Counted from the stretch's first letter, positions 8,326 to 39,708 are shown. The stretch: 64,000 bases of DNA from Lentisphaeria bacterium (GCA_041690595.1 JAWLHB010000009.1:142538-206537), one strand, 5' to 3'. Numbers and translations are program-made. The notes: generated by a model from the sequence alone, not told the origin.

Positions 8326-10335
8326 ATGTCAGCGCAATCCGATAATCTGGACCCTGAGAAGAAGGATGCCGCATTTGGGCGCGACGCCATCCCCGTCCTT
8401 GTCGGGGAAGATGATGAAGGCATGTGTCGGCTGATTCAGCGGGTCCTCGAACGCGAAGGCTTTCGCGTCACCACCGCCACCAGCGGCAACGGCGTTCTCG
8501 CACAGCTTGAATCCCTGCAGGGAGAAGCTGTCCTCCTTCTCGATTATGATCTCACCGACATGCAGGCCGACGCCGTCGCGCTGGAGTGGCAGAAACGCCG
8601 GCGCCGTCCCACCTTCGTCATCATGACCGGCAAGGGCGACGAATCCCTTGCCGTCAAGCTCATGAAGCTCGGAGCCACCGATTACCTCGTCAAGGACTCC
8701 ACCCTCCTCAACCGCTTGCCGCGTGTCCTGGACGCCGCCCTCGAACGACGTTCCACGCAACAACGCCTGGAAGACGCCGAAGAACTCCTCCGCCAGAACC
8801 AGGCCCGCATGGACCTCGCCCTCTGGGCCGCCGAAGCCACCCCCTGGGAATGGCAGGTTCACAACGACGAGCTGCGCTTCGGCAAACTCCTCTCTTCCCT
8901 GCTTGGCGAAGATGAGCACGAACAATGCCTGCCCTTCGCCGATTGGCTGGCACGCATCCACGTCGACGATCGCGATCGTACCGCCGCCGCCTTCGCCCGC
9001 CTGAAATCCGGTCGCCGCCCGCTCCTCGAGGTCGACTACCGCGTTGCCGGTACCGCTGGTCGTTGGCACTGGCTCATGCAGCGCGGCAAAGGGGTTGATT
9101 ATGCCGACGGCGGACAGCTGCTTCGGGCAGCGGGAACCATCGTCGAAACCACCGCCCAGCGGGAGTTGGAAGGGCAGCTTCGCGATGCGCAGAAGATGGA
9201 GGCCATCGGCCGACTGGCGGGCGGAATCGCCCACGACTTCAACAATCTCATGACCATCGTCATCGGCAACTGCCAGCTGGGTCTGCAGCGGCCCGATGAG
9301 CCAGCCAAGATGTGCGAACGCTTCGAACGCATCATGAAAGCCGCCAAACGGGCCGGCGATCTCACTCGACAACTCCTCGCCTTCAGCCGCCGACAGGTTC
9401 TCCTCCCCAGGCAGGTCGCCGTCAACGACGTCATCGGCAATTTCATCGAGATGGTCGACCGAACCATCGGGGAAGATATCGAGCTACAGGCCAAGCTCGG
9501 TACCGAGAAGATGACCGTCTACGCGGATCCCGGACAGCTTGAACAGGTTCTCCTCAATCTCGCCATCAACTCGCGTGAAGCCATGCCGGGTGGCGGCAAG
9601 CTGGTCGTCCGCACCTTCTCCCTGAACCGCGCCGAATACTACCTCCGCTATACCGAAAAGACCGACGCGGCCAACATGGTTTGCATCCAGGTCGAAGATA
9701 ACGGCAAGGGCATCGACGCAGAGCAGCTCAAGAACATCTTCGAACCCTTCTACACCACCAAGGAACCGGGCAGCGGCACCGGGCTCGGCCTCGCCACCGT
9801 CTATGGCATCATCAAGCAGAGCGGCGGCCATGTCGCCGTGCGCAGCGCCCCCGGTCAGGGCACCTGCTTCGACATCTGTCTTCCCATGATCAATGGCGAC
9901 GGCACCGACGAAAAGGCCGATACCGGCGAGCTGCCCGGTCTTGGCGCCGGCACCGAACATGTCCTCGTCGTGGAAGATGAACTGCTCGTCCGCCAGATGG
10001 CCAGGGAATCCCTGGAATCGCTTGGGTACCGCGTCCTCGAAGCCGAAAATGGTGCCGAGGCCCTCCGCGTCTATCTCGAACATCGGGATGAGATAGACAT
10101 CGTGGTCTCCGACATGATCATGCCCGTGATGAGCGGTCAGGAACTGGCCACGCGTCTCCGCGCCATCGCCCCCAGCCTCCCCCTCATCTTCATGTCCGGC
10201 TATCCCCTCCAGCACGACAAGATCCTCAACCAGCTCGGCGATTACACCGTGTACCTGCAGAAGCCCTTTTCCCCCATCCGCCTCTGCAACCTCGTCCGCT
10301 CCACCCTTGACGCCATCCCCAGTTCCAGCGATTAG
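8326..10335 (+). CDS. Hybrid sensor histidine kinase REC-PAS-HisKA-HATPase-REC (CckA-like)
   Basis: N-terminal receiver, PAS/PAC (IHVDDR), H-box GGIAHDFNN, N-box QVLLNLAINS, G boxes DNGKG and FYTTK..G.GTGLGL, C-terminal receiver; no TM segment. Confidence 0.92.
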   Translation: MSAQSDNLDPEKKDAAFGRDAIPVLVGEDDEGMCRLIQRVLEREGFRVTTATSGNGVLAQLESLQGEAVLLLDYDLTDMQADAVALEWQKRRRRPTFVIMTGKGDESLAVKLMKLGATDYLVKDSTLLNRLPRVLDAALERRSTQQRLEDAEELLRQNQARMDLALWAAEATPWEWQVHNDELRFGKLLSSLLGEDEHEQCLPFADWLARIHVDDRDRTAAAFARLKSGRRPLLEVDYRVAGTAGRWHWLMQRGKGVDYADGGQLLRAAGTIVETTAQRELEGQLRDAQKMEAIGRLAGGIAHDFNNLMTIVIGNCQLGLQRPDEPAKMCERFERIMKAAKRAGDLTRQLLAFSRRQVLLPRQVAVNDVIGNFIEMVDRTIGEDIELQAKLGTEKMTVYADPGQLEQVLLNLAINSREAMPGGGKLVVRTFSLNRAEYYLRYTEKTDAANMVCIQVEDNGKGIDAEQLKNIFEPFYTTKEPGSGTGLGLATVYGIIKQSGGHVAVRSAPGQGTCFDICLPMINGDGTDEKADTGELPGLGAGTEHVLVVEDELLVRQMARESLESLGYRVLEAENGAEALRVYLEHRDEIDIVVSDMIMPVMSGQELATRLRAIAPSLPLIFMSGYPLQHDKILNQLGDYTVYLQKPFSPIRLCNLVRSTLDAIPSSSD

Positions 10336-10344
10336 CTGGAGCCG

Positions 10345-11127
10345 TCAGCGTGACTTGGGGGACCAGGGAATGAAGGCGCTGGTGGTACGGCAGTAATCGG
10401 CATAGTCGGATCGGTGACTGAGAGCCTGCTTCTCGGTATGCGGTATGCCGGTGACCTTCCACAGAAAGAGGAGCATGATCAACGGACCTGCCACGCCCCA
10501 TCCCCACCAGGGGGAGCCGATCGCGAAGCAGAGATAGGCAAACCAGTGCAGCCACTCGAAGAAGTAGTTGGGGTGGCGCGAGTAGCGCCAGAGCCCCTGG
10601 CGGCAGGTAGTCCCACGGTTGGCGGCGTTTTCGCGAAAGCGAGTCAACTGGCGATCGGCGATGAATTCCCCGACCAGCGCAACGCCGCCGATGAGAAGTC
10701 CGATCATATCCCAGCCACGCATCCAGGGTGCGGGGTTGGCGGCCGCGGCGAAGATCGGGGCGGCAAAGAGCAAGATGAAGCCGGCCTGGAGCTGAAAGAA
10801 GAGAAAGAAGCCCACCTGAGCGTAGGCCCCCATGGCGCGCCGCATGCGATCATATCGCCCATCCTCCTCAGCCTTGCCGTTGAAAACGCGTTTGAAGAGA
10901 ATGAAGCTGCCCAGGCGGGCGGACCAGATGAAGGCCAGCAGACAAACGACGAGGGTCCGCGCCGACTCTCCAGGTGCCCAGAGAAAGAAGGCGATGGCTG
11001 CCCCGGTCAGGCCGTAGGCCCAGCCGGCATCGACGATGCCCGCGTCGTGGGTGAAGAATTGTATGAGCCAGAGGAGGGTCATCCAGACAGCGGCACCGAT
11101 AGCCAGATAGAGGAAGATCGATATCAT
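10345..11127 (-). CDS. DUF1295 family (steroid 5-alpha-reductase-like) membrane protein
   Basis: IVDAGW, EDGRY, ADRQL..F, GLWRYSRHPNYFFEW, Y...TSAFIPW. Confidence 0.9.
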   Translation of the reverse strand: MISIFLYLAIGAAVWMTLLWLIQFFTHDAGIVDAGWAYGLTGAAIAFFLWAPGESARTLVVCLLAFIWSARLGSFILFKRVFNGKAEEDGRYDRMRRAMGAYAQVGFFLFFQLQAGFILLFAAPIFAAAANPAPWMRGWDMIGLLIGGVALVGEFIADRQLTRFRENAANRGTTCRQGLWRYSRHPNYFFEWLHWFAYLCFAIGSPWWGWGVAGPLIMLLFLWKVTGIPHTEKQALSHRSDYADYCRTTSAFIPWSPKSR

Positions 11128-11663
11128 GATGAACGCTCGGGGTTGACGGTATTGGATTGGCAGTGGCTTTCAATTGCGGCATGTGCAAAGAGCAGCAGTG
11201 GCATGCAGAGAGCCCATTCGATGGCCACCGGAAACAGGCCGGCAGGCAGGCTGACCGCACCGAGTCTGGCACCGCTGGCGTAGGCAAGCGGCCCACCGAC
11301 CGCGCCAAGGAGCGCCGCCAGAACATAGCGCTGGCGCAGCCAGCCCAGTGAGCAGGGAAGAGCAGTAGCCAGATTTACCCAGAGGCAGATCATGAAGGGC
11401 GGGCTGAGAGGGTATGACCAGCGAGGATAGGTGATCGCGCCAGTCTGTGCAAGGATGGTATCGGCCATCAACCCCAAGGCAGCGGCCGCTGCGGCAACGG
11501 CAAGGATCTGGCATCCAGGCGTCAGCCAGCGGCGGTGCACTTCCAGGCTGAGCGCGACCGTCACGGGTCCTGCCCAGCCTGGCCCAACCGCGGCGTCCAG
11601 GACAACCACGAACCAGACGAGTTGGACGAGGATCAGATTGGCGATGAAAGGGCTCATCTTCAT
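11124..11663 (-). CDS. DUF2878 family membrane protein
   Basis: N.IL.Q..WF, PP.MICLW, SLGWL, GAVGGPLAY.SGARLGAV. Confidence 0.85.
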   Translation of the reverse strand: MKMSPFIANLILVQLVWFVVVLDAAVGPGWAGPVTVALSLEVHRRWLTPGCQILAVAAAAAALGLMADTILAQTGAITYPRWSYPLSPPFMICLWVNLATALPCSLGWLRQRYVLAALLGAVGGPLAYASGARLGAVSLPAGLFPVAIEWALCMPLLLFAHAAIESHCQSNTVNPERSS

Positions 11664-12949
11664 ACGCTCAATACGGGGGGTAGTTGGCAGCGGGGCTTGG
11701 TCAGCAGCATCTGCACATCGCCCAGGCAGCGTTCGGCAAAGCCCCCCTCGCAGTAGGAGAAGTAATAGTCCCAGAGCCGGATGAACGCGTCAGAGAAGCC
11801 GAGGGCGCGTACCTCGTCGAGGCGGTCGAAAAAGCGCTGCCGCCAATCGTGAAGCGTACGGGCGTAGTGTGGGCCGATATCTTCAAGATGAAAGAGGCGC
11901 AGGTCGCTCTCCTGGCGGATGGCGGTGGTCATCGAGTGGATCGACGGGATGCTGCTGCCGGGGAAAACGTAACGCTGTATGAAGTCAACGGAACGCCGGG
12001 CACCATCGTAGAGCCGGTCGTCGATCGTGATTGCCTGCAGGAGCATGCTGCCGTCGGGCTTGAGCAGTCGTGAGCAGGTACGGAAATATTCACCCACATA
12101 CTGCCAGCCAACGGCCTCGATCATCTCGATCGATACCAGCTTGTCGTACTGACCTTTCAACTGGCGGTAGTCGTTGAGCAGGACGCTGACACGGTCCGCG
12201 AGACCGGCGTCGGCGACACGCTCGACCGCCAGTTTGTGCTGTTCGGCGGAGATGGTCGTGGTCGTGACGCGGCAGCCATACCGGGTAGCTGCATGGATGG
12301 CGAAGCCCCCCCACCCGGTACCGATCTCCAGAACATGATCGGCCGGCGTCAGAGCCAGCTTGCGGCAGATGCGGTCGACCTTTTCGATGGCAGCCTCTTC
12401 CAGGCTGGTGTCGGCGCGCGGATAGACGGCGGCTGAATACATCATCGTCGGGTCGAGAAAGAGCGCAAAGAAGTCGTTGCTCAGATCGTAGTGCGTGGCG
12501 ATGTTTCGGCGGCTACCGGCGACGGTGTTGCGGTGCATGGCGTGGATGGCTTTGCGTACGGGGGAGGCTAACCTGGCGAAGCCGCCCTCCATGCCGTCGA
12601 GCACCTCGCGGTTGCGAATGAAGAGGCGGACGAGGTCAGTCAGGTTGGGGCTGCGCCAGAACCCCCGCATGAATGCTTCGGCGGCGCCAATGCTGCCGCC
12701 GAGCACGGTATCCGCGTAGAAAGCGGGATCGTCGACGATCAGTTCTGTATCGAGATCGGTGTCGCCGGGCTGTCCGTAGGTCGCGGTGGTGCCATCTTCA
12801 TGGAGGCGGAGGCGCCCGTGGCGAAGGCGGCTGAGTTGGCGATGCAGAAGGGAACGGCAAACGCTGGTTACCCAATCGGACGAGCGGACGCGGTTCACGG
12901 CGGCGGGGCGTATGAGATCGGTGGCCAGAGTAGCGGAACGGAGGGTCAT
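11660..12949 (-). CDS. cfa: Cyclopropane-fatty-acyl-phospholipid synthase family SAM methyltransferase (UfaM-like)
   Basis: NIATHYDLSNDFF.LFLD..MMYS, VLEIGTGWGG, DYR, SIEMIEAVG, FIQRYVFPG, W.YY..YCEGGF. Confidence 0.9.
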   Translation of the reverse strand: MTLRSATLATDLIRPAAVNRVRSSDWVTSVCRSLLHRQLSRLRHGRLRLHEDGTTATYGQPGDTDLDTELIVDDPAFYADTVLGGSIGAAEAFMRGFWRSPNLTDLVRLFIRNREVLDGMEGGFARLASPVRKAIHAMHRNTVAGSRRNIATHYDLSNDFFALFLDPTMMYSAAVYPRADTSLEEAAIEKVDRICRKLALTPADHVLEIGTGWGGFAIHAATRYGCRVTTTTISAEQHKLAVERVADAGLADRVSVLLNDYRQLKGQYDKLVSIEMIEAVGWQYVGEYFRTCSRLLKPDGSMLLQAITIDDRLYDGARRSVDFIQRYVFPGSSIPSIHSMTTAIRQESDLRLFHLEDIGPHYARTLHDWRQRFFDRLDEVRALGFSDAFIRLWDYYFSYCEGGFAERCLGDVQMLLTKPRCQLPPVLSV

Positions 12950-12962
12950 GACATCGACTCCA

Positions 12963-13739
12963 TTAGTCAGTGGTGGCTGTCTGAGGGTGGTGATGGAAAG
13001 GGGTGCCCTTGCACCAGTGGCGAAAAGCCTGCCAGTAGATGCCGGCCACCACGCGGATGGTCATCAGCGGATACTCCGCGAGGACGCGGGTCAGGGCCAG
13101 ACCGGTTATCGGTCGGCGCTTCAGGGTGAGCGTTGCGTCGAAGACTTTGTCGCCCTGCCGCCAGTTCTCCATGTGCACATTGAGATGCTCACCGGGCTGC
13201 CGGAAGCGCCAGTCATAGGTCATGTCCATGCCCATGAACGGGGAAACATGGAAGCGCTTGGGCATCCGCCATTGGAGGAAGTGGGGGCTGGGGTGCTCGC
13301 TGTGGCGCCGGTCCAGAACGTAGGCGTGGCGCTCGCCCCACGGGGTGTTGGTGATCTCCGCGACAATCGCCTCGACCTGCTGCCCATCGGCGCTGAAGCA
13401 GTAGTAGAAGCTGACCGGGTTAAAAATGTGCCCCGCGTATCGCAGATGGGTGAGCAGGCGTATCGGACCGACCGGCTCCCAGCCGAGGCGACGCTTGACC
13501 AACTCCCGCACGGCCTCGTCCAGCGGCAGCGTGGCCGGACCAAGATAATCGGCACGGCGAAACCAGGCCGGGGCCGGCCGTCGCGCCGACCAGAGCGGAT
13601 TGACGTCGAAGAGGTCAGGCAATTCCGCAAGGTCGATATACATCATGCAGAGCCGGTAGCGGAAGGCGTGGGGACGCAAGCCGTTGCGGCGGTGGCGTAC
13701 CCAACCGGCGTAGATGCAGCTTTTCGGATCGGTAATCAT
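12963..13739 (-). CDS. DUF1365 family protein (UfaO-like)
   Basis: G.VRHRR...HAFRY, FNPVSFYYC, EITNTPWGERH.Y, K.FHVSPFM, IYWQA. Confidence 0.92.
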   Translation of the reverse strand: MITDPKSCIYAGWVRHRRNGLRPHAFRYRLCMMYIDLAELPDLFDVNPLWSARRPAPAWFRRADYLGPATLPLDEAVRELVKRRLGWEPVGPIRLLTHLRYAGHIFNPVSFYYCFSADGQQVEAIVAEITNTPWGERHAYVLDRRHSEHPSPHFLQWRMPKRFHVSPFMGMDMTYDWRFRQPGEHLNVHMENWRQGDKVFDATLTLKRRPITGLALTRVLAEYPLMTIRVVAGIYWQAFRHWCKGTPFHHHPQTATTD

Positions 13740-14995
13740 GCGATGACACTCTCCTGATTGTACGCCAGACCTCGACAGACTTCCAGAGCGCTCACGACCC
13801 CATCCTCATGGAAGCCGTTGCGCCAGTAGGCTCCGCAATAGTGGGTGCGCTCGCGGCCACTGATCTCGCCGTGACGGGCCTGCGCGGCCACTCCCGCCGC
13901 TGTCATGAGCGGATGATGATACGTGTAGCTGCCGAGAATCGTGGCGGGATCGATGCGGTCGCGGCAGTTGAGGCTGACAAGGTACTCCTCGTCGGCGGTG
14001 AGCGATTGCAGGATGTTCATGTTGTAGGTCACCGCGACGCGTTCCCGAGCATGGCGCGGCAGGTGGTAGTTCCAGGCGGCCCAGGCAAGGCGACGGCGCG
14101 GCATCAGGGAAGCGTCCGTGTGCAGCACCACGTCGTTCTCCTGGTAAGGAAGGGCTCCCAGGATCGCCCGCTCACTGGGCGTGGGGTCGGCCAGCAGGCG
14201 CAGCGCCTGGTCGCTGTGGGTCGCCACGATGACATGGTCGAACTCTTCCGCTTCACCGTTGACCGGGATCACCTGCACATGGTCCTCGGAACGACGGATC
14301 CCGGCGACCGGCGTCCGCAGTCGAATACGATGTCCGAAGGGTTTGATGAGCGCATCCACGTAGCGGCGCGAGCCGCCCTGTACGACCCGCCACCGCGGCC
14401 GGTCGCTGACGCTCAGCATGCCGTGGTTCTTGAAAAAGCGAATGAAGAAGCGAACCGGAAAGCGGAGCATGGCATCCGCCGGCGCGGACCATATGGCGGC
14501 CCCCATGGGAATGACGTAGTGCTCTCGGAAGTGGTCCGAGTAACCGTTGGCGGTCAGATAGTCACCGAGCGTAAGGGTATCTTCACCGTCGGTAGCCATG
14601 GCAGGAGCTTCGCGGTTGAAGCGAAGGATGTCGCGGATCATCCGGTGAAAGCTTGGTCGGAAAAGGTTGCTTCGCTGGGCAAAGAGCGTGTTGAGGCTGG
14701 TACCGTTGTACTCCAGGCCGCTGCGCTCGCAACGCACACTGAAGCTCATCTCCGTCGGCTGAGAATCGACGCCCAATTCGTCCAGCAGGCGGATGAAGTT
14801 GGGATAGGTCCAGTCGTTGAAGACGATGAAACCGGTGTCGATCTCCCAGGTGCGCCCGCCGCGCTCCACCTCGACCGTGTGGGTGTGGCCGCCGACCCAG
14901 TCGCTGCTTTCGAAGAGGGTCAGGTCATGCTCGCGATGCAGGCGGTGGGCGCAGGTCAGGCCGGCGATGCCGGTACCGATAATGGCTATCTTCAT
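13736..14995 (-). CDS. FAD-dependent oxidoreductase, amine-oxidase family (UfaD-like)
   Basis: MKIAIIGTGIAGL Rossmann motif, GGHTHT, DTGFIVFN..TYPNF, AWAAWNY, CGAYW.NGFHEDG. True start at 14995, an ATGA overlap with the desaturase stop. Confidence 0.92.
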   Translation of the reverse strand: MKIAIIGTGIAGLTCAHRLHREHDLTLFESSDWVGGHTHTVEVERGGRTWEIDTGFIVFNDWTYPNFIRLLDELGVDSQPTEMSFSVRCERSGLEYNGTSLNTLFAQRSNLFRPSFHRMIRDILRFNREAPAMATDGEDTLTLGDYLTANGYSDHFREHYVIPMGAAIWSAPADAMLRFPVRFFIRFFKNHGMLSVSDRPRWRVVQGGSRRYVDALIKPFGHRIRLRTPVAGIRRSEDHVQVIPVNGEAEEFDHVIVATHSDQALRLLADPTPSERAILGALPYQENDVVLHTDASLMPRRRLAWAAWNYHLPRHARERVAVTYNMNILQSLTADEEYLVSLNCRDRIDPATILGSYTYHHPLMTAAGVAAQARHGEISGRERTHYCGAYWRNGFHEDGVVSALEVCRGLAYNQESVIA

Positions 14996-15924
14996 CGAGT
15001 CTTCTCCAGAAGGTTGCGATGGCGGACTTCGACGGGTACTGGGCGAATTGCCCACACCAGCCCCAGCCGGCCGAACAGACGCAGGATGTAGTAGGTGATG
15101 TCGATCTCCCACCAGTAATGACTCTGTCGGCAGGAGACAGCATAGCTGTGGTGGTTGTTGTGCCACCCTTCGCCCAGCGTAAGCAGGGCGAGCAGCAGGC
15201 TGTTGCGGCTGTCGTCGCCGGTGGCGTAGCGGGCACGTCCCAGCCGGTGGGCCAGCGAATTGATGCAGCAGGTCGCGTGGAAAACGATCACCGTCGAGAT
15301 TGCCCCTCCCCAGACCAGCAGTTGCCATCCGGAAGTCCCAAGAGCGGGCACGTATGCCCGCAGTACCTCACCCATCAGGTAGAGCAGCGCGAAGTAGAGC
15401 GCCGGGGCCACGATGTCATAGCGATCGAGGAAGCGCAGCTCCGGATACTTTGCCAGGTCGCGAACGGCAGACAAATCCGTTCGAAAATTGCGAGGGGTCA
15501 GAAACCAGAGGACATGACTCCACCAGAACCCATGCTGGCGAGGCGAATGAACGTCTTCGGTCGTGTCGGAGTACTGATGGTGCCTCCGGTGATGGGCGGC
15601 CCACCAGAGCGGACCGCGTTGGGCAGCGGAATTCCCCAGGACGGCAAAGACAAACTGGGTCACCCGTCCCGTCTGGAAGCTCTTGTGACTGAAATACCGA
15701 TGGTAGAATCCAGTTATCGCGAACATGCGGACCAGGTAACCCGCAACTGCCACGATCAGCGCCGTCCAACTCCAACCCACCCAGATGATGCCGAGACAAG
15801 CCGCATGCAGCGCAACGAAGGGAAGGACTCGAAGTCGATCGATCCGGTTCGCGTCGGCTGGAACCGGATCTTCGGCGGCGCCGGAATCGATCCAGAGCCG
15901 GATGGTATTCAATGGGCTCCTCAT
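14992..15924 (-). CDS. Fatty acid (delta-9-like) desaturase
   Basis: Three His boxes HRYFSH, HHRRHH and HNNHH (GEGWHNNHH). ATG at 15924 is preceded by GAGGAG; a GTG at 15969 is an alternative start. Confidence 0.92.
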   Translation of the reverse strand: MRSPLNTIRLWIDSGAAEDPVPADANRIDRLRVLPFVALHAACLGIIWVGWSWTALIVAVAGYLVRMFAITGFYHRYFSHKSFQTGRVTQFVFAVLGNSAAQRGPLWWAAHHRRHHQYSDTTEDVHSPRQHGFWWSHVLWFLTPRNFRTDLSAVRDLAKYPELRFLDRYDIVAPALYFALLYLMGEVLRAYVPALGTSGWQLLVWGGAISTVIVFHATCCINSLAHRLGRARYATGDDSRNSLLLALLTLGEGWHNNHHSYAVSCRQSHYWWEIDITYYILRLFGRLGLVWAIRPVPVEVRHRNLLEKTR

Positions 15925-15983
15925 GCTTCTCCTCAAAGGGTGCGCGGGTTGGTCGGGGATCTTCTTCACCTACAATAGCCGCA

Positions 15984-16013
15984 TGTCTAAGTTTTGTCTA
16001 TCTTGATCGTCAA
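15984..16013 (-). promoter_or_regulatory. Putative CarH operator and sigma70 promoter of the lipid operon
   Basis: On the minus strand TAGACA occurs at 15995-16000 and 15984-15989, exactly 11 bp apart; a -35-like TTGACG lies at 16008-16013. Confidence 0.65.
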
Positions 16014-16042
16014 AGCTTTGGCAATATATTTTGTTTTTTATA

Positions 16043-16075
16043 TCGACAACTTATAGAAACTTCTTCGACAACGAC
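16043..16075 (+). promoter_or_regulatory. Putative CarH autoregulatory operator (three 11-bp direct repeats)
   Basis: TCGACA(16043) actta TAGAAA(16054) cttct TCGACA(16065): 11-bp phasing of TnnACA-type hexamers just upstream of the regulator ATG at 16088. Confidence 0.7.
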
Positions 16076-16087
16076 TACTGTAAAGAT

Positions 16088-17035
16088 ATGAAAGACACCT
16101 CGAACTATCCGATTCGGGCGGTGAGCCAGCGCACCGGGCTGAGCGCTCATGTGATACGTGCCTGGGAGAAGCGGTATGGCTTCCCGGAGCCAGCTCGCAG
16201 CGAGACCAATCGCCGCTTTTACAGCCAGACTGACATCGAGACGCTGCTGCTGTTGAAGCAGCTTATCGACAAAGGTTACGCGATAGGCCAGATCGCCCGC
16301 CTGCAACCCGACGAGCTGCGTCAGCTGCTGGCTACAGTCTCTGGTTCCAAGGCGAACCGAGCGGAGGCAGGCACGGAGGCAGGAAGCGTCGCGGAGGAAA
16401 GTCTGGTCCGCTGCCTGGATGCCGTCAACGCGTTGTCTGCCGAAACGCTGCTGGCGGTTTTGCGCCAGGCCACGCTGACCCTCAGCAAGCCTCACCTGCT
16501 CGAAAAACTGATTTCACCGTTGATGGAGGAGATCGGTAACCGCTGGGAACGCGGCGAGCTGCGCGTGGCAAACGAACACATGGCGTCGGCCGTGGTGCGC
16601 ACCTTTCTGGTCAACCTGCTCGATGCCGCGACGCCTGACGCCGAGGCACCGGCCATCGTGGTGACCACACCGCGCGGGCAGACGCACGAGATCGGAGCGC
16701 TGATGGTCGCAGTTCGGGCCGCTTCGCTGGGTTGGCGGGTCACCTACCTGGGGGCCGATCTGCCGAGCGACGAAATCGGCGCCGCCGCGCTAACCCTGAA
16801 GGCAACGGCCATCGCGCTCAGCCTGGTGCATCCCGCGGGCCGCATCGAGGTGGTTCACGAGATACACGCGCTACATGATGCCTTACCGGCAGTACCGATC
16901 ATCGTCGGCGGCAGATCCATCGAGAGCTATCGTCTCCTTCTCGAAGCTCGTGGCATCGACTGTCTCGCCAGTCTGGCCGATCTGCCCGGCGCCCTCCAGC
17001 GCAAGGTCCATTCCCAGAAGCCCTCATTGCATTGA
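16088..17035 (+). CDS. CarH/LitR-type MerR-family regulator with cobalamin-binding domain (putative AdoB12 photoreceptor)
   Basis: MerR HTH with IRAWEKRYG; W-x9-EH (WERGELRVANEH); B12 motif QTHEIG...YLGADLP...ALSLV...IVGG. Confidence 0.9.
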   Translation: MKDTSNYPIRAVSQRTGLSAHVIRAWEKRYGFPEPARSETNRRFYSQTDIETLLLLKQLIDKGYAIGQIARLQPDELRQLLATVSGSKANRAEAGTEAGSVAEESLVRCLDAVNALSAETLLAVLRQATLTLSKPHLLEKLISPLMEEIGNRWERGELRVANEHMASAVVRTFLVNLLDAATPDAEAPAIVVTTPRGQTHEIGALMVAVRAASLGWRVTYLGADLPSDEIGAAALTLKATAIALSLVHPAGRIEVVHEIHALHDALPAVPIIVGGRSIESYRLLLEARGIDCLASLADLPGALQRKVHSQKPSLH

Positions 17036-17092: not shown

Positions 17093-18247
17093 TCAACCGA
17101 ACTGAACGAACTCCGGGGTGTCGAGGAAGGCGGGTGTCGTGCCGCGCCATTGCCGACGATAAAGCTGGCGACGCTCGAGGAGCCAGATGTCCATGAAGAG
17201 CGTGCAGCCGGGCGCGGTATCGTCCGGGTGGCAGGGGGTGCCTGTCAAGCACATGGGACCTGACGAATCGCGCTGCTCCATGAGTTGCTTGAGATTGTCA
17301 TAGCTGGGATTGAGGGAAAGCTCATCGATGTAACGGGCCATATTGCACCACGTACCGTCGCAGAGACGCCAGAAGGCGGCATCGGCACAGTTTTCGTCCT
17401 GGCCTGTCAGCTCGAGGTGTCGGCGGCGCATGGCCCGCTGATGGGCGCTGATGCCGGGATCGAGCGCGCCCATGCCGGTGATCCAGTTGATGCCGTTGGC
17501 GTTCGGACCGCGAGCCGCCACCCGGCAGCGGGTCTTCTCGAAGGCCACGGAGTTGCCCTTCTGGTCGTGCACCAGCAGATTCTGGCTGCTCCAGAAGTAT
17601 GTGTACCGTACCAGGAACTCACGCGCCTCGTCGACCGTGGTGCAGAGTTCCTTCGCCATTTCGCGCGCATCGGCGGGAAAGATCTCGGGCGGTGGCTCGT
17701 CGATATGCAGCCCGCTGCCGACGCCGTCGAAGCAGAGTGGCTCGTTCCAAGGCCAGGGGGTGCCCGGAGCAATGGGCGGACGCGGCGTGAAATAGGTCAG
17801 CGGATCATCGACGTTCTTGGCGTGCAAAGCGCCGCGATCGCTCTCTGGAACGTAAACGATGCGGCATTTCTCCGGCTGGGGAGCCGCATGCCAGGCGCGG
17901 CCAGTCTCTTCCACCAGACGCACATCCCGCCAGAAGTTGAGCGAGACGCTGTAGGCGATGGTCAGCTCATCGACGCCGGCATCGCGCATGCCGCAGTACT
18001 CCTCCTCGAGTAACTCACGGTAGCCGCGAAGCTCGGGGTAGATAGAGAGATCCGGTACCGCATCGAGCCGCTCCCGGTGATAACAGCTGACCCGCGTCGC
18101 GATCTCTTCATCGGAGATGTCCAGCAGTAACGCCAGGCCATGCGCGGCATCCAGCCAGTAGCGCCGCCCAACATAGCTGTCCGCCAACATCCTGCGCCCC
18201 CTGGAAAGCCCCTTGGCGTAAGCCCTTTCTTTCCGCTCTGTTTGCAT
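17093..18247 (-). CDS. Hypothetical protein, possible Ntn-hydrolase (peptidase C45/AAT-like)
   Basis: Internal K-C-RIVY...LHAKNVD resembles the C45 Cys-nucleophile ...hxxNxD pattern; a later NLLVHD.KGNSV.FE strand pair. Confidence 0.5.
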   Translation of the reverse strand: MQTERKERAYAKGLSRGRRMLADSYVGRRYWLDAAHGLALLLDISDEEIATRVSCYHRERLDAVPDLSIYPELRGYRELLEEEYCGMRDAGVDELTIAYSVSLNFWRDVRLVEETGRAWHAAPQPEKCRIVYVPESDRGALHAKNVDDPLTYFTPRPPIAPGTPWPWNEPLCFDGVGSGLHIDEPPPEIFPADAREMAKELCTTVDEAREFLVRYTYFWSSQNLLVHDQKGNSVAFEKTRCRVAARGPNANGINWITGMGALDPGISAHQRAMRRRHLELTGQDENCADAAFWRLCDGTWCNMARYIDELSLNPSYDNLKQLMEQRDSSGPMCLTGTPCHPDDTAPGCTLFMDIWLLERRQLYRRQWRGTTPAFLDTPEFVQFG

Positions 18248-18420: not shown

Positions 18421-20769
18421 ATGAGCCCGATACCCAGCCTGACTATCCATGAACCCGATCTTCCTTTTGCGACGGGGATGCCGGTGCCGGCAGCCGAAGC
18501 CGAAAGCTTCCTCTCGGGCGCGCTGCTGACCGATGCCGACGGAGCGGTTCATCCCCTGCAGGTGGCAGCGCTGATGCCGCCGACGCCGGATGGATGCCGC
18601 TGGCTGGAGATTGCGGGCGCTGGCGCTGCTGCCGGTCCGGCCACGGTGGCGCCGGGCAGTATCGATGCCGGAACAAGCCTGGTGGCCGGCGAAGCGGGGG
18701 CGGCGCTGCTGACGGTGGGTAAGCTGCGCCTGACCTTGAAGACGGATCCCGCGTCAGCCCCTCTGGTCGTGGAGAGGCGCTGCGACGAGGGCAAGTGGAC
18801 ATGCCTGGGCGAGTTGTCACCGGAGGTCGTCACCGAAGGTGGTCTGGTGCATCTGGAAGGGCCACGAGCCGAGCGGGAGCTCCGGGTGCTGCGGAACGGA
18901 GCCGTACGCGGCCAGGCGGAACTTACTGGCCGCCTCGAGCAGCGGCCCGGCGAGCCGTCCATGCACTACCGGCTGACCGTCGAGGTCTGGCAGGGAGTGA
19001 CTGGAGCGCGCATCGACTTCATGCTTACCCACGCGGTGGCCGGGGTTGCCGAGATGGCCGTGCAACGCGCCACTCTGCGCGGACTATGGGAGGTGGGAGA
19101 ACCCACCTTGCGTCGCTTTCTGCAACAGAATCACGGCCCCTACTACAAGCGCCGCGAAGTCGCCAATCCGCGTAGCGTGGCGCTGATCACTGACGACAGC
19201 TGTGGCCCCGTCCATGTGCGCGACGCCCAGATGCTGCTCGATACCGTCGCTTATGCCCACTATCTGCAGGCGCCGTTGATCCAGACGGGCGACTGGCTCA
19301 CCCTTGCCGGCCCTGAACGCTGGGTGACCATGCGACTGCGCGATTTCGTTGCCACGCGTCCGAATCAATTGCGCAGCGAGGGACAGGAGTTGAGCTACGA
19401 CCTGCTGCCGGACGGCCATGGTTGCTCCTGGCCACAAGGGCGACGCAAGGAACAGACGTTGCTCCTGACCTTCGGCACAGGCGAATCGACGCAAGCTGCC
19501 GGCGCCATGGCCAATCTTGAAGCCCTGCTCGTCGATGGCCGGGCACAGCCGGCGCCGGCCTACCTCGCAGCCATGCGCAATTTTGACCTTCACCACGCGA
19601 TGCCGGCAGTCAAAGGGGAGAACGTGCGTCTGAGCATCATCCTGCGTCGTCTCTGCCAGTTGAAGACGCCAAGCTGCAAGTGGGATCTGGGGGATACGAT
19701 TGACCCTGGCTATACGCGCACCTATCCAGCGGTGCCGCACCGGCTCGAATGGCTGCCGGGTGCGCCGGAGGTGCCGGTTCGCTTCGATGCCGCCGGCCGC
19801 TCGCTCTGGGGTGACAGTGTGCCGCACCTCATCGAGCCGGTCTGGACAAACAACGAGTACGACATCCTGCATGCGCTGGCCAGCGAAACAATGCGCTGCG
19901 GCGGCAATGACCACCTGCAGATGCTGCGCTGGGCCTCCAGGCACGTTATCGAGATTGACTTCCGCAGCTACTCCGACGACCGCTGGCACCACCAGGCGCA
20001 GCCCGCGCATTCCGCTCATCACAACACCACCGGCGCCTACCCCAGTCATTTCTGGACGCAGGGCCTGCTCCAGTATTACGCCTTGACAGGTGACCGGGAC
20101 GCGGAGCAGGTGGCCCTGGCGCTTGGCGACAAGATCATCGAGCACAATCACGTGCCGGAGATGCGTCAATGGGGCTTCGATCGGGAGTTGGGGTGGGGTT
20201 TGCTCTCGCTGGTCTGCCTGCTCGAAGCCGGTTATTCACGTTACCGACAGGAGGCCGATGCCATCGTCGAGTACCTGATGGCCTACGACCGGGCCGCCTA
20301 TGCCGGTGCCGTCAACCTCTCCGCCGGCCGCGCCGGCCGCAGTCTCGAACGCCAGATGGTCGACAATGGCTTCGGCTATTCATCCATGGTCGAGGCAATC
20401 GACCGCTACCAGCGGGTGACTGGGCGTGACGATACCGCCGCGTGGCTCGAGACACTTCTCCGCCAGCTCAAGGGCGAGTGCTGGAATGCCATCGACGACG
20501 GAGAAGTACCGGGTGTTCGCGGCATGATGCCGATGGTCATGTCGATCGGCTACGCGCGGACCGCAGACGAGGATTTCATCGCGGTCGGGCTGATCATGCT
20601 GGAGTCCTTCTTCGATGCGCTTTCCATGGGAGAGGAGGCGCACTTCGGCTACGTGAAGTCGAATGCCATGCTCTACCGTGGTCTGGCACGCTTCCTGGGC
20701 GACGCACACCGGCTCGACCGACTGGCCCCCTTCGAGTTCGCCTCACTCCTCCGGCGACGCGGGAGATAG
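18421..20769 (+). CDS. Large hypothetical protein, beta-sandwich plus alpha/alpha barrel (YetA/exo-rhamnogalacturonan lyase-like)
   Basis: 782 aa with GGAGA SD; motifs NNEYD, SHFWTQGLLQYY.LTGD, RELGWGL. Confidence 0.55.
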   Translation: MSPIPSLTIHEPDLPFATGMPVPAAEAESFLSGALLTDADGAVHPLQVAALMPPTPDGCRWLEIAGAGAAAGPATVAPGSIDAGTSLVAGEAGAALLTVGKLRLTLKTDPASAPLVVERRCDEGKWTCLGELSPEVVTEGGLVHLEGPRAERELRVLRNGAVRGQAELTGRLEQRPGEPSMHYRLTVEVWQGVTGARIDFMLTHAVAGVAEMAVQRATLRGLWEVGEPTLRRFLQQNHGPYYKRREVANPRSVALITDDSCGPVHVRDAQMLLDTVAYAHYLQAPLIQTGDWLTLAGPERWVTMRLRDFVATRPNQLRSEGQELSYDLLPDGHGCSWPQGRRKEQTLLLTFGTGESTQAAGAMANLEALLVDGRAQPAPAYLAAMRNFDLHHAMPAVKGENVRLSIILRRLCQLKTPSCKWDLGDTIDPGYTRTYPAVPHRLEWLPGAPEVPVRFDAAGRSLWGDSVPHLIEPVWTNNEYDILHALASETMRCGGNDHLQMLRWASRHVIEIDFRSYSDDRWHHQAQPAHSAHHNTTGAYPSHFWTQGLLQYYALTGDRDAEQVALALGDKIIEHNHVPEMRQWGFDRELGWGLLSLVCLLEAGYSRYRQEADAIVEYLMAYDRAAYAGAVNLSAGRAGRSLERQMVDNGFGYSSMVEAIDRYQRVTGRDDTAAWLETLLRQLKGECWNAIDDGEVPGVRGMMPMVMSIGYARTADEDFIAVGLIMLESFFDALSMGEEAHFGYVKSNAMLYRGLARFLGDAHRLDRLAPFEFASLLRRRGR

Positions 20770-38523: not shown

Positions 38524-39708
38524 TCAGCCATCTTCCACTTTCTTCGGGTTGAACCAGCCGGCGGCATTGTCTGGACGGATATCGGTGAGATCGCCACGAT
38601 AATGGCGCAGCTCGCGCGGCTCGAAGGGATGCTCGGCAATGGCCTCCTCGTTCAGCTCGATGCCCAGCCCCGGGCGATCCGGAACCCACATGCGACCACC
38701 TTCGAAGCGGATGCTTTCGTCACAGATATCCTTGCGCCAGGGGACATCGCTGGCCATGGTTTCGAGCAAGTGGAAGTTGGTGGTGGAGGCGGCGATCTGC
38801 AGGGCCGCGGCATTGGCCACCGGGCCGCTTGGATTGTGAGGGCAGATGGCGATGTGGTTGGCTTCCGCCTGGGCGGCGATCTTCTTCACCTCGCCGATGC
38901 CACCCACGTGGCTCAGGTCGGGCTGCACATAGTCTGCACATCGCAACTGAAAGAAGCGCTGGTAGTCCCAGCGACTGTAGATGCGTTCGCCGGCGGCAAT
39001 GGGCACGCGCACCCGCTGCTTGACCTCGAGGAGGGCTTCCAGGTTGTCCGGAGGGACCGGCTCCTCAAACCAGGTGATGTCGAAGGCTTCGAGCGCGCGC
39101 CCGATGCGCACCGCCGTCGCCACGTTGAATCGCCCATGTCCTTCGACGAGGATCTCCACGTCGTCGCCGACGGCATCGACCACGGCTTCGACGCAAGCCA
39201 GCGCCTGGCGGAGCTGGCTCTTCTCGATGTTCAGGTAGGCGGCGCCGAAGGGATCCCACTTGAGACCTCGGAAGCCTTGCGCAACGGCCGCGCGGGCCTT
39301 CTCGGCGAACTCCTCCGGCCGCTTCGCCGGCGCAAACCAGCCGTTTGCGTAGCAGGGCACGCTCTCATGCACGCGCCCGCCGAGAAGCTGGTAGACGGGA
39401 ACGCCGAGCGCCTTGCCCTTGATGTCCCAGAGCGCCATCTCTATCCCGGAGAGGGCACTCATGAGGACGGGGCCGCCCCGCCAGTAGACGTTGCGGTAGG
39501 TCTCGTGCCAGATGGCTTCGATGTCGTGGGGATCGCGCCCGATCAGGCTCCGCTCCAGTTCCAGCATCGCCTGGGCGACGGTCTGTTCGCGGTACTCCAG
39601 GGTCGCTTCGCCGACGCCGTGGATTCCCTCGTCGGTGGAGACCTTGACGAAGACCCAGTTGGTGCGGTAGGCGTGGCAGATCAGGGGACGAATCGAGGTG
39701 ATCTTCAT
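38524..39708 (-). CDS. Mandelate racemase/enolase-superfamily acid-sugar dehydratase (galactonate dehydratase-like)
   Basis: GVGEATLE, ALWDIKGK.LG.PVY.LLGG, KWDPF, EEP, GER, QPD, PHNP.GP, PGLGIE. Confidence 0.88.
   Translation of the reverse strand: MKITSIRPLICHAYRTNWVFVKVSTDEGIHGVGEATLEYREQTVAQAMLELERSLIGRDPHDIEAIWHETYRNVYWRGGPVLMSALSGIEMALWDIKGKALGVPVYQLLGGRVHESVPCYANGWFAPAKRPEEFAEKARAAVAQGFRGLKWDPFGAAYLNIEKSQLRQALACVEAVVDAVGDDVEILVEGHGRFNVATAVRIGRALEAFDITWFEEPVPPDNLEALLEVKQRVRVPIAAGERIYSRWDYQRFFQLRCADYVQPDLSHVGGIGEVKKIAAQAEANHIAICPHNPSGPVANAAALQIAASTTNFHLLETMASDVPWRKDICDESIRFEGGRMWVPDRPGLGIELNEEAIAEHPFEPRELRHYRGDLTDIRPDNAAGWFNPKKVEDG

Follow-up and report, generated by a model that had tools for sequence, protein, structure and literature searches.

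What reads the tandem hexamers that separate carH from a divergent set of lipid genes, and which genes would be controlled through them? The question is raised by a 64,000-nt stretch of DNA from a Lentisphaeria bacterium (the window), in which an initial annotation noticed one set of hexamers in 11-bp steps on each strand and read the two sets as a bidirectional CarH operator. The signature of the adjacent protein, the conservation of the repeats at homologous loci and the genome-wide rank of the two sites support that reading, in the form of two separate operators.

Phased hexamers in the carH spacer

The spacer between the minus-strand start at 15924 and the plus-strand start at 16088 encompasses 163 bp at 40% GC, in an 8.1-Mb genome (estimated 97% complete) with a GC content of 61.5%. 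Re-reading of the sequence located all five hexamers where the initial annotation had placed them, with exact 11-bp steps in each set. The plus strand carries TCGACA (16043-16048), TAGAAA (16054-16059), and TCGACA (16065-16070); the minus strand carries TAGACA twice (16000 to 15995 and 15989 to 15984). All five have G as the third base. The minus set comprises two repeats, and the units flanking it match none of the four fixed positions, leaving no pseudo-repeat on either side.

The repeats exceed chance at their location. A pair at 11 bp arises in 0.8% and a DR-x-DR arrangement in 0.7% of 200,000 shuffles of the 163-bp spacer; a T.GACA pair arises in 0.04%, and 0.015% of the shuffles show phased sets on the two strands at once. 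Within the 64-kb window, a three-unit pattern with a relaxed middle matches once, against 0.01 expected. TNNACA-N5-TNNACA matches twice, against 0.49 expected, and 8 of 100 shuffles reach two; the second match, at 38924, falls inside a 648-aa frame of 63% GC. Across both strands of the 8.1-Mb genome the bare TnnACA pair occurs 57 times, with about 73 estimated from base composition, i.e. without enrichment. Among 1053 AT-rich genome windows of 163 bp, 11 hold a pair and five a DR-x-DR arrangement. The initial annotation had proposed to define the regulon by scanning the genome for the bare pattern; at this chance-level count no regulon is definable from it, and the pattern by itself is insufficient for the purpose.

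Coverage by metagenome contigs from four DNA runs is patchy here, with a depth of 2-4; no RNA run contains this DNA. Compared with the window, low-depth contigs of close relatives (X3, X4; 15910-16176) show differences at 16002, 16012, 16014-16016, 16074, and 16075. All seven spacer differences avoid the five hexamers; by estimate this would happen by chance about once in four cases, so we give it no weight.

A B12-type CarH and six lipid genes

The plus-strand gene at 16088-17035 encodes a 315-aa protein with the three domains of a class I LitR. A MerR-type helix-turn-helix occupies the N-terminus (PF13411 MerR_1, E 2.6e-18, residues 7-73). It is followed by a four-helix bundle (PF02607 B12-binding_2, E 4.7e-11) containing the Wx9EH motif as W153-x9-E163-H164, and by a Rossmann domain (PF02310 B12-binding, E 1.8e-12) in which H200, within xHxxG, is the cobalt-binding lower axial ligand. 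The Wx9EH motif caps the adenosyl group. W153, E163, H164, H200, E201, and G203 do not vary among 30 homologues. Of the solved structures, chain 3whp_A from Thermus thermophilus is the closest relative (E 3.4e-34), and the alignment keeps the W...EH and HxxG stretches; 5c8d_A, deposited as CarH, aligns with E 4.3e-34. On the strength of the domains, the invariant residues and the Thermus alignment, the product is, by sequence, a class I, B12-type CarH/LitR. Its nearest relatives are 49% identical at most. The best NCBIfam model, 'HTH-type transcriptional repressor CarH' (NF052513), gives 143.1 bits, below its cut-off of 400, and the window protein is not an equivalog by this narrow model. No other such regulator was found in the genome, where two further B12-binding_2 matches lie in frames of 215 and 1230 aa. 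A PduO-type adenosyltransferase (PF01923) is encoded elsewhere in the genome (C10:68845-69336). The two frames beside carH, at 17093-18247 (minus strand, 384 aa) and 18421-20769 (plus strand, 782 aa), match no Pfam family at E <=0.001.

On the other side of the spacer, six consecutive minus-strand genes overlap or are separated by gaps of at most 13 nt. Gene 1 (14992..15924) encodes a 310-aa membrane fatty acid desaturase (Pfam FA_desaturase, E 6e-19), whose match to the NCBIfam DesA-family model stays below that model's cut-off; GAGGAG precedes its ATG by 4 nt. Gene 2 (13736..15007), which overlaps gene 1 by 16 nt, encodes a UfaD-like FAD/NAD-binding desaturase of the amine-oxidase type (Pfam Amino_oxidase, NAD_binding_8). 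Gene 3 (12963..13739; 4-nt overlap with gene 2) encodes a UfaO-like DUF1365 protein (E 6e-83). The product of gene 4 (11660..12949) is a UfaM-like SAM methyltransferase of the cyclopropane-fatty-acid-synthase family (Pfam CMAS, E 9e-84), below the cut-offs of all NCBIfam CFA-synthase models. Two membrane proteins complete the series, a 179-aa DUF2878 protein (gene 5, 11124..11663; E 3e-29; 4-nt overlap with gene 4) and a 260-aa DUF1295 protein (gene 6, 10345..11127; E 1e-61; 4-nt overlap with gene 5). A 669-aa frame on the plus strand (8326-10335) converges on the end of the operon; its translation reads as a putative hybrid histidine kinase carrying receiver domains at its two ends.

The initial annotation had spoken of a lipid operon. 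Lipid genes do lie divergent from carH, and the description can be narrowed to six genes resembling a furan fatty acid pathway. Families of the UfaM, UfaD, and UfaO type (CMAS, Amino_oxidase, DUF1365; assigned at the Pfam level) are adjacent in the operon. According to parts of PMC7380195, UfaD, UfaO, which contains DUF1365, and UfaM are the enzymes with which Rhodobacter and Rhodopseudomonas produce methylated furan fatty acids, and furan fatty acids are linked to protection from membrane damage. At the Pfam level of comparison, the same three enzyme families that R. sphaeroides and R. palustris possess (PMC7380195, in part) stand side by side in the window. Unlike the Ufa genes of those bacteria, the window operon has a membrane fatty acid desaturase gene at its head, DUF2878 and DUF1295 genes at its end and a predicted CarH operator in front. 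In Rhodobacter, the Ufa operon is part of the singlet-oxygen regulon governed by sigma-E/ChrR.

Repeats at homologous loci and across the genome

A search of 60 relatives of the window genome found a carH match in only one and no partner in the genus or family; the comparison therefore used CarH homologues that are 39-47% identical. Eighty loci were fetched, and 78 upstream regions were used (77 of the 80 plus L002). Their phylum labels, taken from record titles, include Ignavibacteria, Verrucomicrobiota, Poribacteria, Armatimonadota, Calditrichota, Latescibacterota, and Gemmatimonadota. Over the 220 bp upstream of the start codons, TnnACA pairs number 114 at a spacing of 11 bp, 29 at 22, and 21 at 33, vs 1.0 expected at 11 and about one at 22 and 33, with at most 11 at every other spacing up to 40; the loci are not independent, many being Ignavibacteria-type MAGs, and kinship inflates these counts and their z-scores. 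The phased signal is present under many different phylum labels. Fifty-nine of the 78 loci hold a pair at spacing 11 within 220 bp, vs two or three at spacings of 9, 10, 12, or 13. Control segments from the same loci contain no pair at 11 (79 internal to carH, 70 far upstream at 980-1200 bp, and 76 downstream). Conservation upstream of orthologues, which the initial annotation had put forward as a test, is borne out over 300 bp: an exact 11-bp pair precedes carH in 64 of 78 regions, in both orientations in 22, oriented with carH alone in nine and in the opposite orientation alone in 33. The remaining 14 regions lack an exact pair. The third position of the hexamer, free in the search pattern, is occupied by G at 182 of 233 sites, and the commonest hexamers are TAGACA (102) and TTGACA (68); TCGACA accounts for eight.

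The homologous loci also show how the repeats are placed. In 24 of them a carH-oriented pair starts between -45 and -28; its first repeat, mostly TTGACA, lies at about -35 to -33 and coincides with the -35 box. The second repeat falls in the spacer, a TAnnnT box follows 16-17 nt past the -35 element, and about 6 nt then remain to the ATG. This geometry suggests a leaderless carH mRNA across several phyla; the literature searched held nothing relevant on leaderless CarH mRNA. Nine loci, mostly labelled Verrucomicrobiota (L017, L022, L039, L040, L056, L070, L072, L073, L079), have their carH-proximal pair at about -24 to -5 and pointing away from carH, in contrast to the carH-oriented pair at -33 of the Ignavibacteria-type loci and the window.

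Arrays at the homologous loci are short, with two units in 97 of 115 and three units in 18. Where arrays stand back to back (21 loci), the gap between them ranges from 12 to 198 bp. This range rules out a fixed spacing between two operators, and the two window sets are therefore best read as separate operators. Two loci share gene content with the window. In L053 (labelled Latescibacterota), carH faces a desaturase gene (56% identical) and a UfaD-like gene (55% identical), with a desaturase-oriented TTGACA/TAGACA pair 50 bp from a carH-oriented pair. L002 belongs to the same order as the window. It shares the carH/desaturase gene pair and carries a carH-oriented repeat pair at -33; no tandem pair was seen on its desaturase side.

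Divergent neighbours within 450 bp were catalogued at 65 loci (L003-L082). Fasciclin genes are the most frequent (18, three of them fused to CIA30), followed by sigma-70/ECF-type sigma factors (11), DUF4397 and amine-oxidase/CrtI-like genes (five each), NUDIX (four), and Gate (three). Fatty acid desaturase and DUF378 occur twice each and phytoene synthase once; seven neighbours belong to other families and seven to none. Pigment genes are a small minority of carH neighbours in this clade. A literature search on CarH together with fasciclin returned nothing relevant.

To rank the window sites, we used a repeat matrix derived from 232 homologue units, with the window excluded. The minus set, termed O-lipid, consists of repeat 1 (unit AAGATAGACAA, 15994..16004), which at 11.9 is the best-scoring unit of the region, and repeat 2 (unit AACTTAGACAT, 15983..15993), which scores 11.2. 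Their sum, 23.1, puts O-lipid first among the two-unit sites of the 8.1-Mb genome; the runner-up scores 18.4, and four such sites, O-lipid included, reach at least 14. The plus set, O-carH, comprises DR1 (unit TATATCGACAA, 16039..16049; score 9.8), a pseudo-repeat dr2 (16050..16060), and DR3 (unit TTCTTCGACAA, 16061..16071; score 10.1). DR1 and DR3 together score 19.9, the highest of five DR-x-DR sites in the genome (runner-up, 16.8). With its C missing (TAGAAA), dr2 scores -3.1 and is therefore degenerate; among the five sites it is the least bad middle unit.

The three other two-unit sites at or above 14 precede a DUF5122/cadherin-like surface protein gene, a >839-aa frame and a GFO/IDH/MocA oxidoreductase gene, with no evident light link; as regulon members they were rejected, and we take them as chance -35 boxes plus one extra hexamer. 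The second-best two-unit site (C55:13319-13340) is followed by a perfect TTGACA-17-TATAAT promoter and lies about 60 bp before a DUF5122/cadherin-like gene of >833 aa. A photolyase gene was considered as a further member and set aside; it is a single gene (C25:62616-63080) directly behind another gene, with no upstream unit above 4.2. The phytoene/squalene synthase family (PF00494) has no match in this genome, estimated to be 97% complete. Given the matrix ranks, the lack of a site at the photolyase gene and the lack of PF00494, the CarH regulon may be just this locus.

Predicted promoters, proposed dark repression, and alternatives

On the minus strand, a consensus scan predicts a promoter that pairs TAGACA (16000) with TATTGT (-10 element, 15972..15977) across a 17-nt spacer, with 9/12 matches. 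The first TAGACA, i.e. the hexamer of O-lipid repeat 1, is thus itself the likely, predicted -35 box of the lipid promoter, with repeat 2 in the promoter spacer, so that the minus operator would cover both the -35 box and the spacer. The initial annotation had placed the minus set next to a TTGACG -35 box. That box does exist on the minus strand (16013 to 16008) but is probably not the -35 element of the lipid promoter: it has no acceptable -10 partner, and the consensus scan does not report it.

Upstream of the window carH, TAGAAA lies at -34, TCGACA at -23, and TACTGT at -12, with an extra full repeat at -45. By analogy with the 24 homologous loci, TAGAAA within dr2 is likely the -35 box of a leaderless carH promoter and TACTGT (TAnnnT; 16076..16081), 16 nt past TAGAAA and 6 nt ahead of the ATG, its predicted -10 element; DR3 would then lie in the promoter spacer, and the plus set would cover the -35 box and the spacer. 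No Shine-Dalgarno-like sequence precedes the carH ATG, whereas the desaturase gene has GAGGAG. The consensus scan does not report TAGAAA/TACTGT and gives instead an alternative sigma-70-like promoter, TTGATC-16-TATATT (16003..16030, plus strand, 9/12 matches). Given this prediction, a leaderless carH is one of two readings, and the probable one. If TTGATC-16-TATATT is used, O-carH sits just downstream of the transcription start. A protein bound at O-carH would block transcription from either predicted promoter.

Both sets use the repeat unit of known CarH operators. The repeat invoked by the initial annotation, tandem 11-bp units with a TnnACA core, agrees with PMC9304148, parts of which describe the AdoCbl-bound CarH tetramer as binding tandem nnnnTnnACAn repeats in the dark, three in Thermus and four in Bacillus. 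The same parts of PMC9304148 report that CarH operators tolerate pseudo-repeats and can hold the -35 box inside a repeat, and that CarH still binds where one or two DRs are accompanied by drs. T. thermophilus CarH (LitR; PDB 5C8D/5C8E/5C8F, 3WHP) has its architecture and signature residues in common with the window protein. Its operator at the carH/crtB region, as described in parts of PMC9304148, resembles the window in using the same 11-bp unit with the -35 box in one repeat, and the contact of one CarH dimer with the non-adjacent DR1 and DR3 suits the DR1-dr2-DR3 set of the window. Thermus has a single operator of three full repeats, whereas the window has two back-to-back operators, one of two repeats and one with a degenerate centre. 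Operators of Bacillus megaterium and myxobacterial CarH, covered in part by PMC9304148 (Fernandez-Zapata 2018 cited there), are like those of the window mixtures of DRs and drs that overlap the -35 or -10 box; they differ in having four to five units and serving carotenoid genes, whereas two units are present in 97/115 arrays of the window clade. PMC9304148, in the parts concerned, further notes that in CarH systems a single control region can serve two divergent genes. By sequence, the window sets (DR-dr-DR and two DRs) fit this operator grammar, at its short end, and both are very probably docking sites for CarH.

These observations lead to a model that we consider highly probable, in which two back-to-back operators mediate dark repression of carH and the lipid operon by AdoCbl-bound CarH, relieved by light. 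O-lipid (15983-16004, minus strand) would place two TAGACA repeats over the -35 box and spacer of the six-gene promoter. O-carH (16039-16071, plus strand) would place DR1-dr2-DR3 over the -35 box (TAGAAA) and spacer of carH, whose leaderless mRNA would begin with the ATG at 16088 or close to it. Oligomers of CarH carrying adenosylcobalamin would occupy both operators in the dark and exclude RNA polymerase. Upon illumination the Co-C bond would be broken, the oligomer would dissociate and leave the DNA, and both promoters would fire. The outcome would be more CarH together with modified membrane lipids, the probable product being furan fatty acids, which act as scavengers of singlet oxygen. From sequence and comparison we infer binding, repression and its dependence on light and B12, as well as the promoters, the start sites and the lipid product.

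Three other explanations have to be weighed. Improbable, yet the best of them, is that CarH binds here without acting as a light-relieved repressor of both units, e.g. with only the lipid promoter under control and carH expressed constitutively, or with the protein sensing, through AdoCbl, a signal other than light. The degenerate middle unit of the plus set and the different plus-strand promoter predicted upstream would suit this explanation. However, the window CarH keeps Wx9EH and the His ligand, and the plus set is the best DR-x-DR site of the genome, stands where the proximal pair stands in the 24 loci and would block either predicted promoter. Quite unlikely is a second explanation, that the hexamers are mere sigma-70 -35-like boxes in an AT-rich divergent promoter region, phased by chance and read by no protein. 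TnnACA does overlap the -35 consensus (it includes relatives of TTGACA), the bare pair is unenriched genome-wide (57 in 8.1 Mb), and about 1% of AT-rich windows (11/1053) hold one. Chance phasing is countered by the rarity of both-strand sets among the spacer shuffles (0.015%), by 114 pairs at spacing 11 vs one expected at the 78 carH homologues with none in the controls, and by the top genome-wide rank of both sites on an independent matrix. OmpR/PhoB-type response regulators use 11-bp direct repeats as well. That such a regulator reads the repeats in place of CarH, with the putative hybrid histidine kinase adjoining the operon (8326-10335, from its translation) as a point in its favour, is the least likely explanation: the repeats accompany carH across many phylum labels regardless of the neighbouring gene and fit the published CarH repeat, and of the four two-unit sites scoring at least 14, the three outside the spacer include none at a phosphate-uptake gene, as judged by annotation of the downstream genes.

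With dark repression by CarH at two operators as the preferred reading, the mechanism is a textbook one and the gain incremental. Of most interest are the apparent rewiring of CarH from pigment genes to furan-type lipid genes, how common two-repeat operators are, and the predicted absence of a leader on the carH mRNA. CarH/LitR usually targets pigment genes (PMC9304148, in part), whereas its predicted target in the window is a lipid operon. A light-controlled cluster with UfaM, an FAD-dependent oxidoreductase and unnamed proteins is described for the class II LitR of Pseudomonas (PplR/PmlR) in parts of PMC9758184 (Sumi 2020 cited there). Class II LitR is devoid of the Rossmann B12 domain and acts together with LOV photoreceptors; the window CarH, in contrast, is of class I by its B12 signature residues. 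In the literature searched, the link to Ufa-type genes was found for class II LitR only, and no operon of this kind was described under a B12-dependent CarH of class I.

Belief and doubt are evenly balanced for a broader proposal that joins these points: that the regulon consists of carH and the furan-type operon, with the B12 switch driving singlet-oxygen defence of membrane lipids and not pigments; that the basic operator throughout the clade has two repeats, the first serving as the -35 box, in front of a leaderless carH; and that the fasciclin, sigma factor, and DUF4397 partners represent unstudied light-controlled functions. For an uncultured lineage, the locus provides a testable operator map of a B12 photoreceptor, comprising five repeats, the predicted positions of two promoters and a start predicted to be leaderless. 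That two repeats are usual for the operators of a large CarH clade spanning many phyla bears on the number of DNA-binding domains that an oligomer needs to engage. In this organism, where no pigment pathway was found, the arrangement suggests that CarH light sensing is wired to a furan-type defence of membrane lipids.
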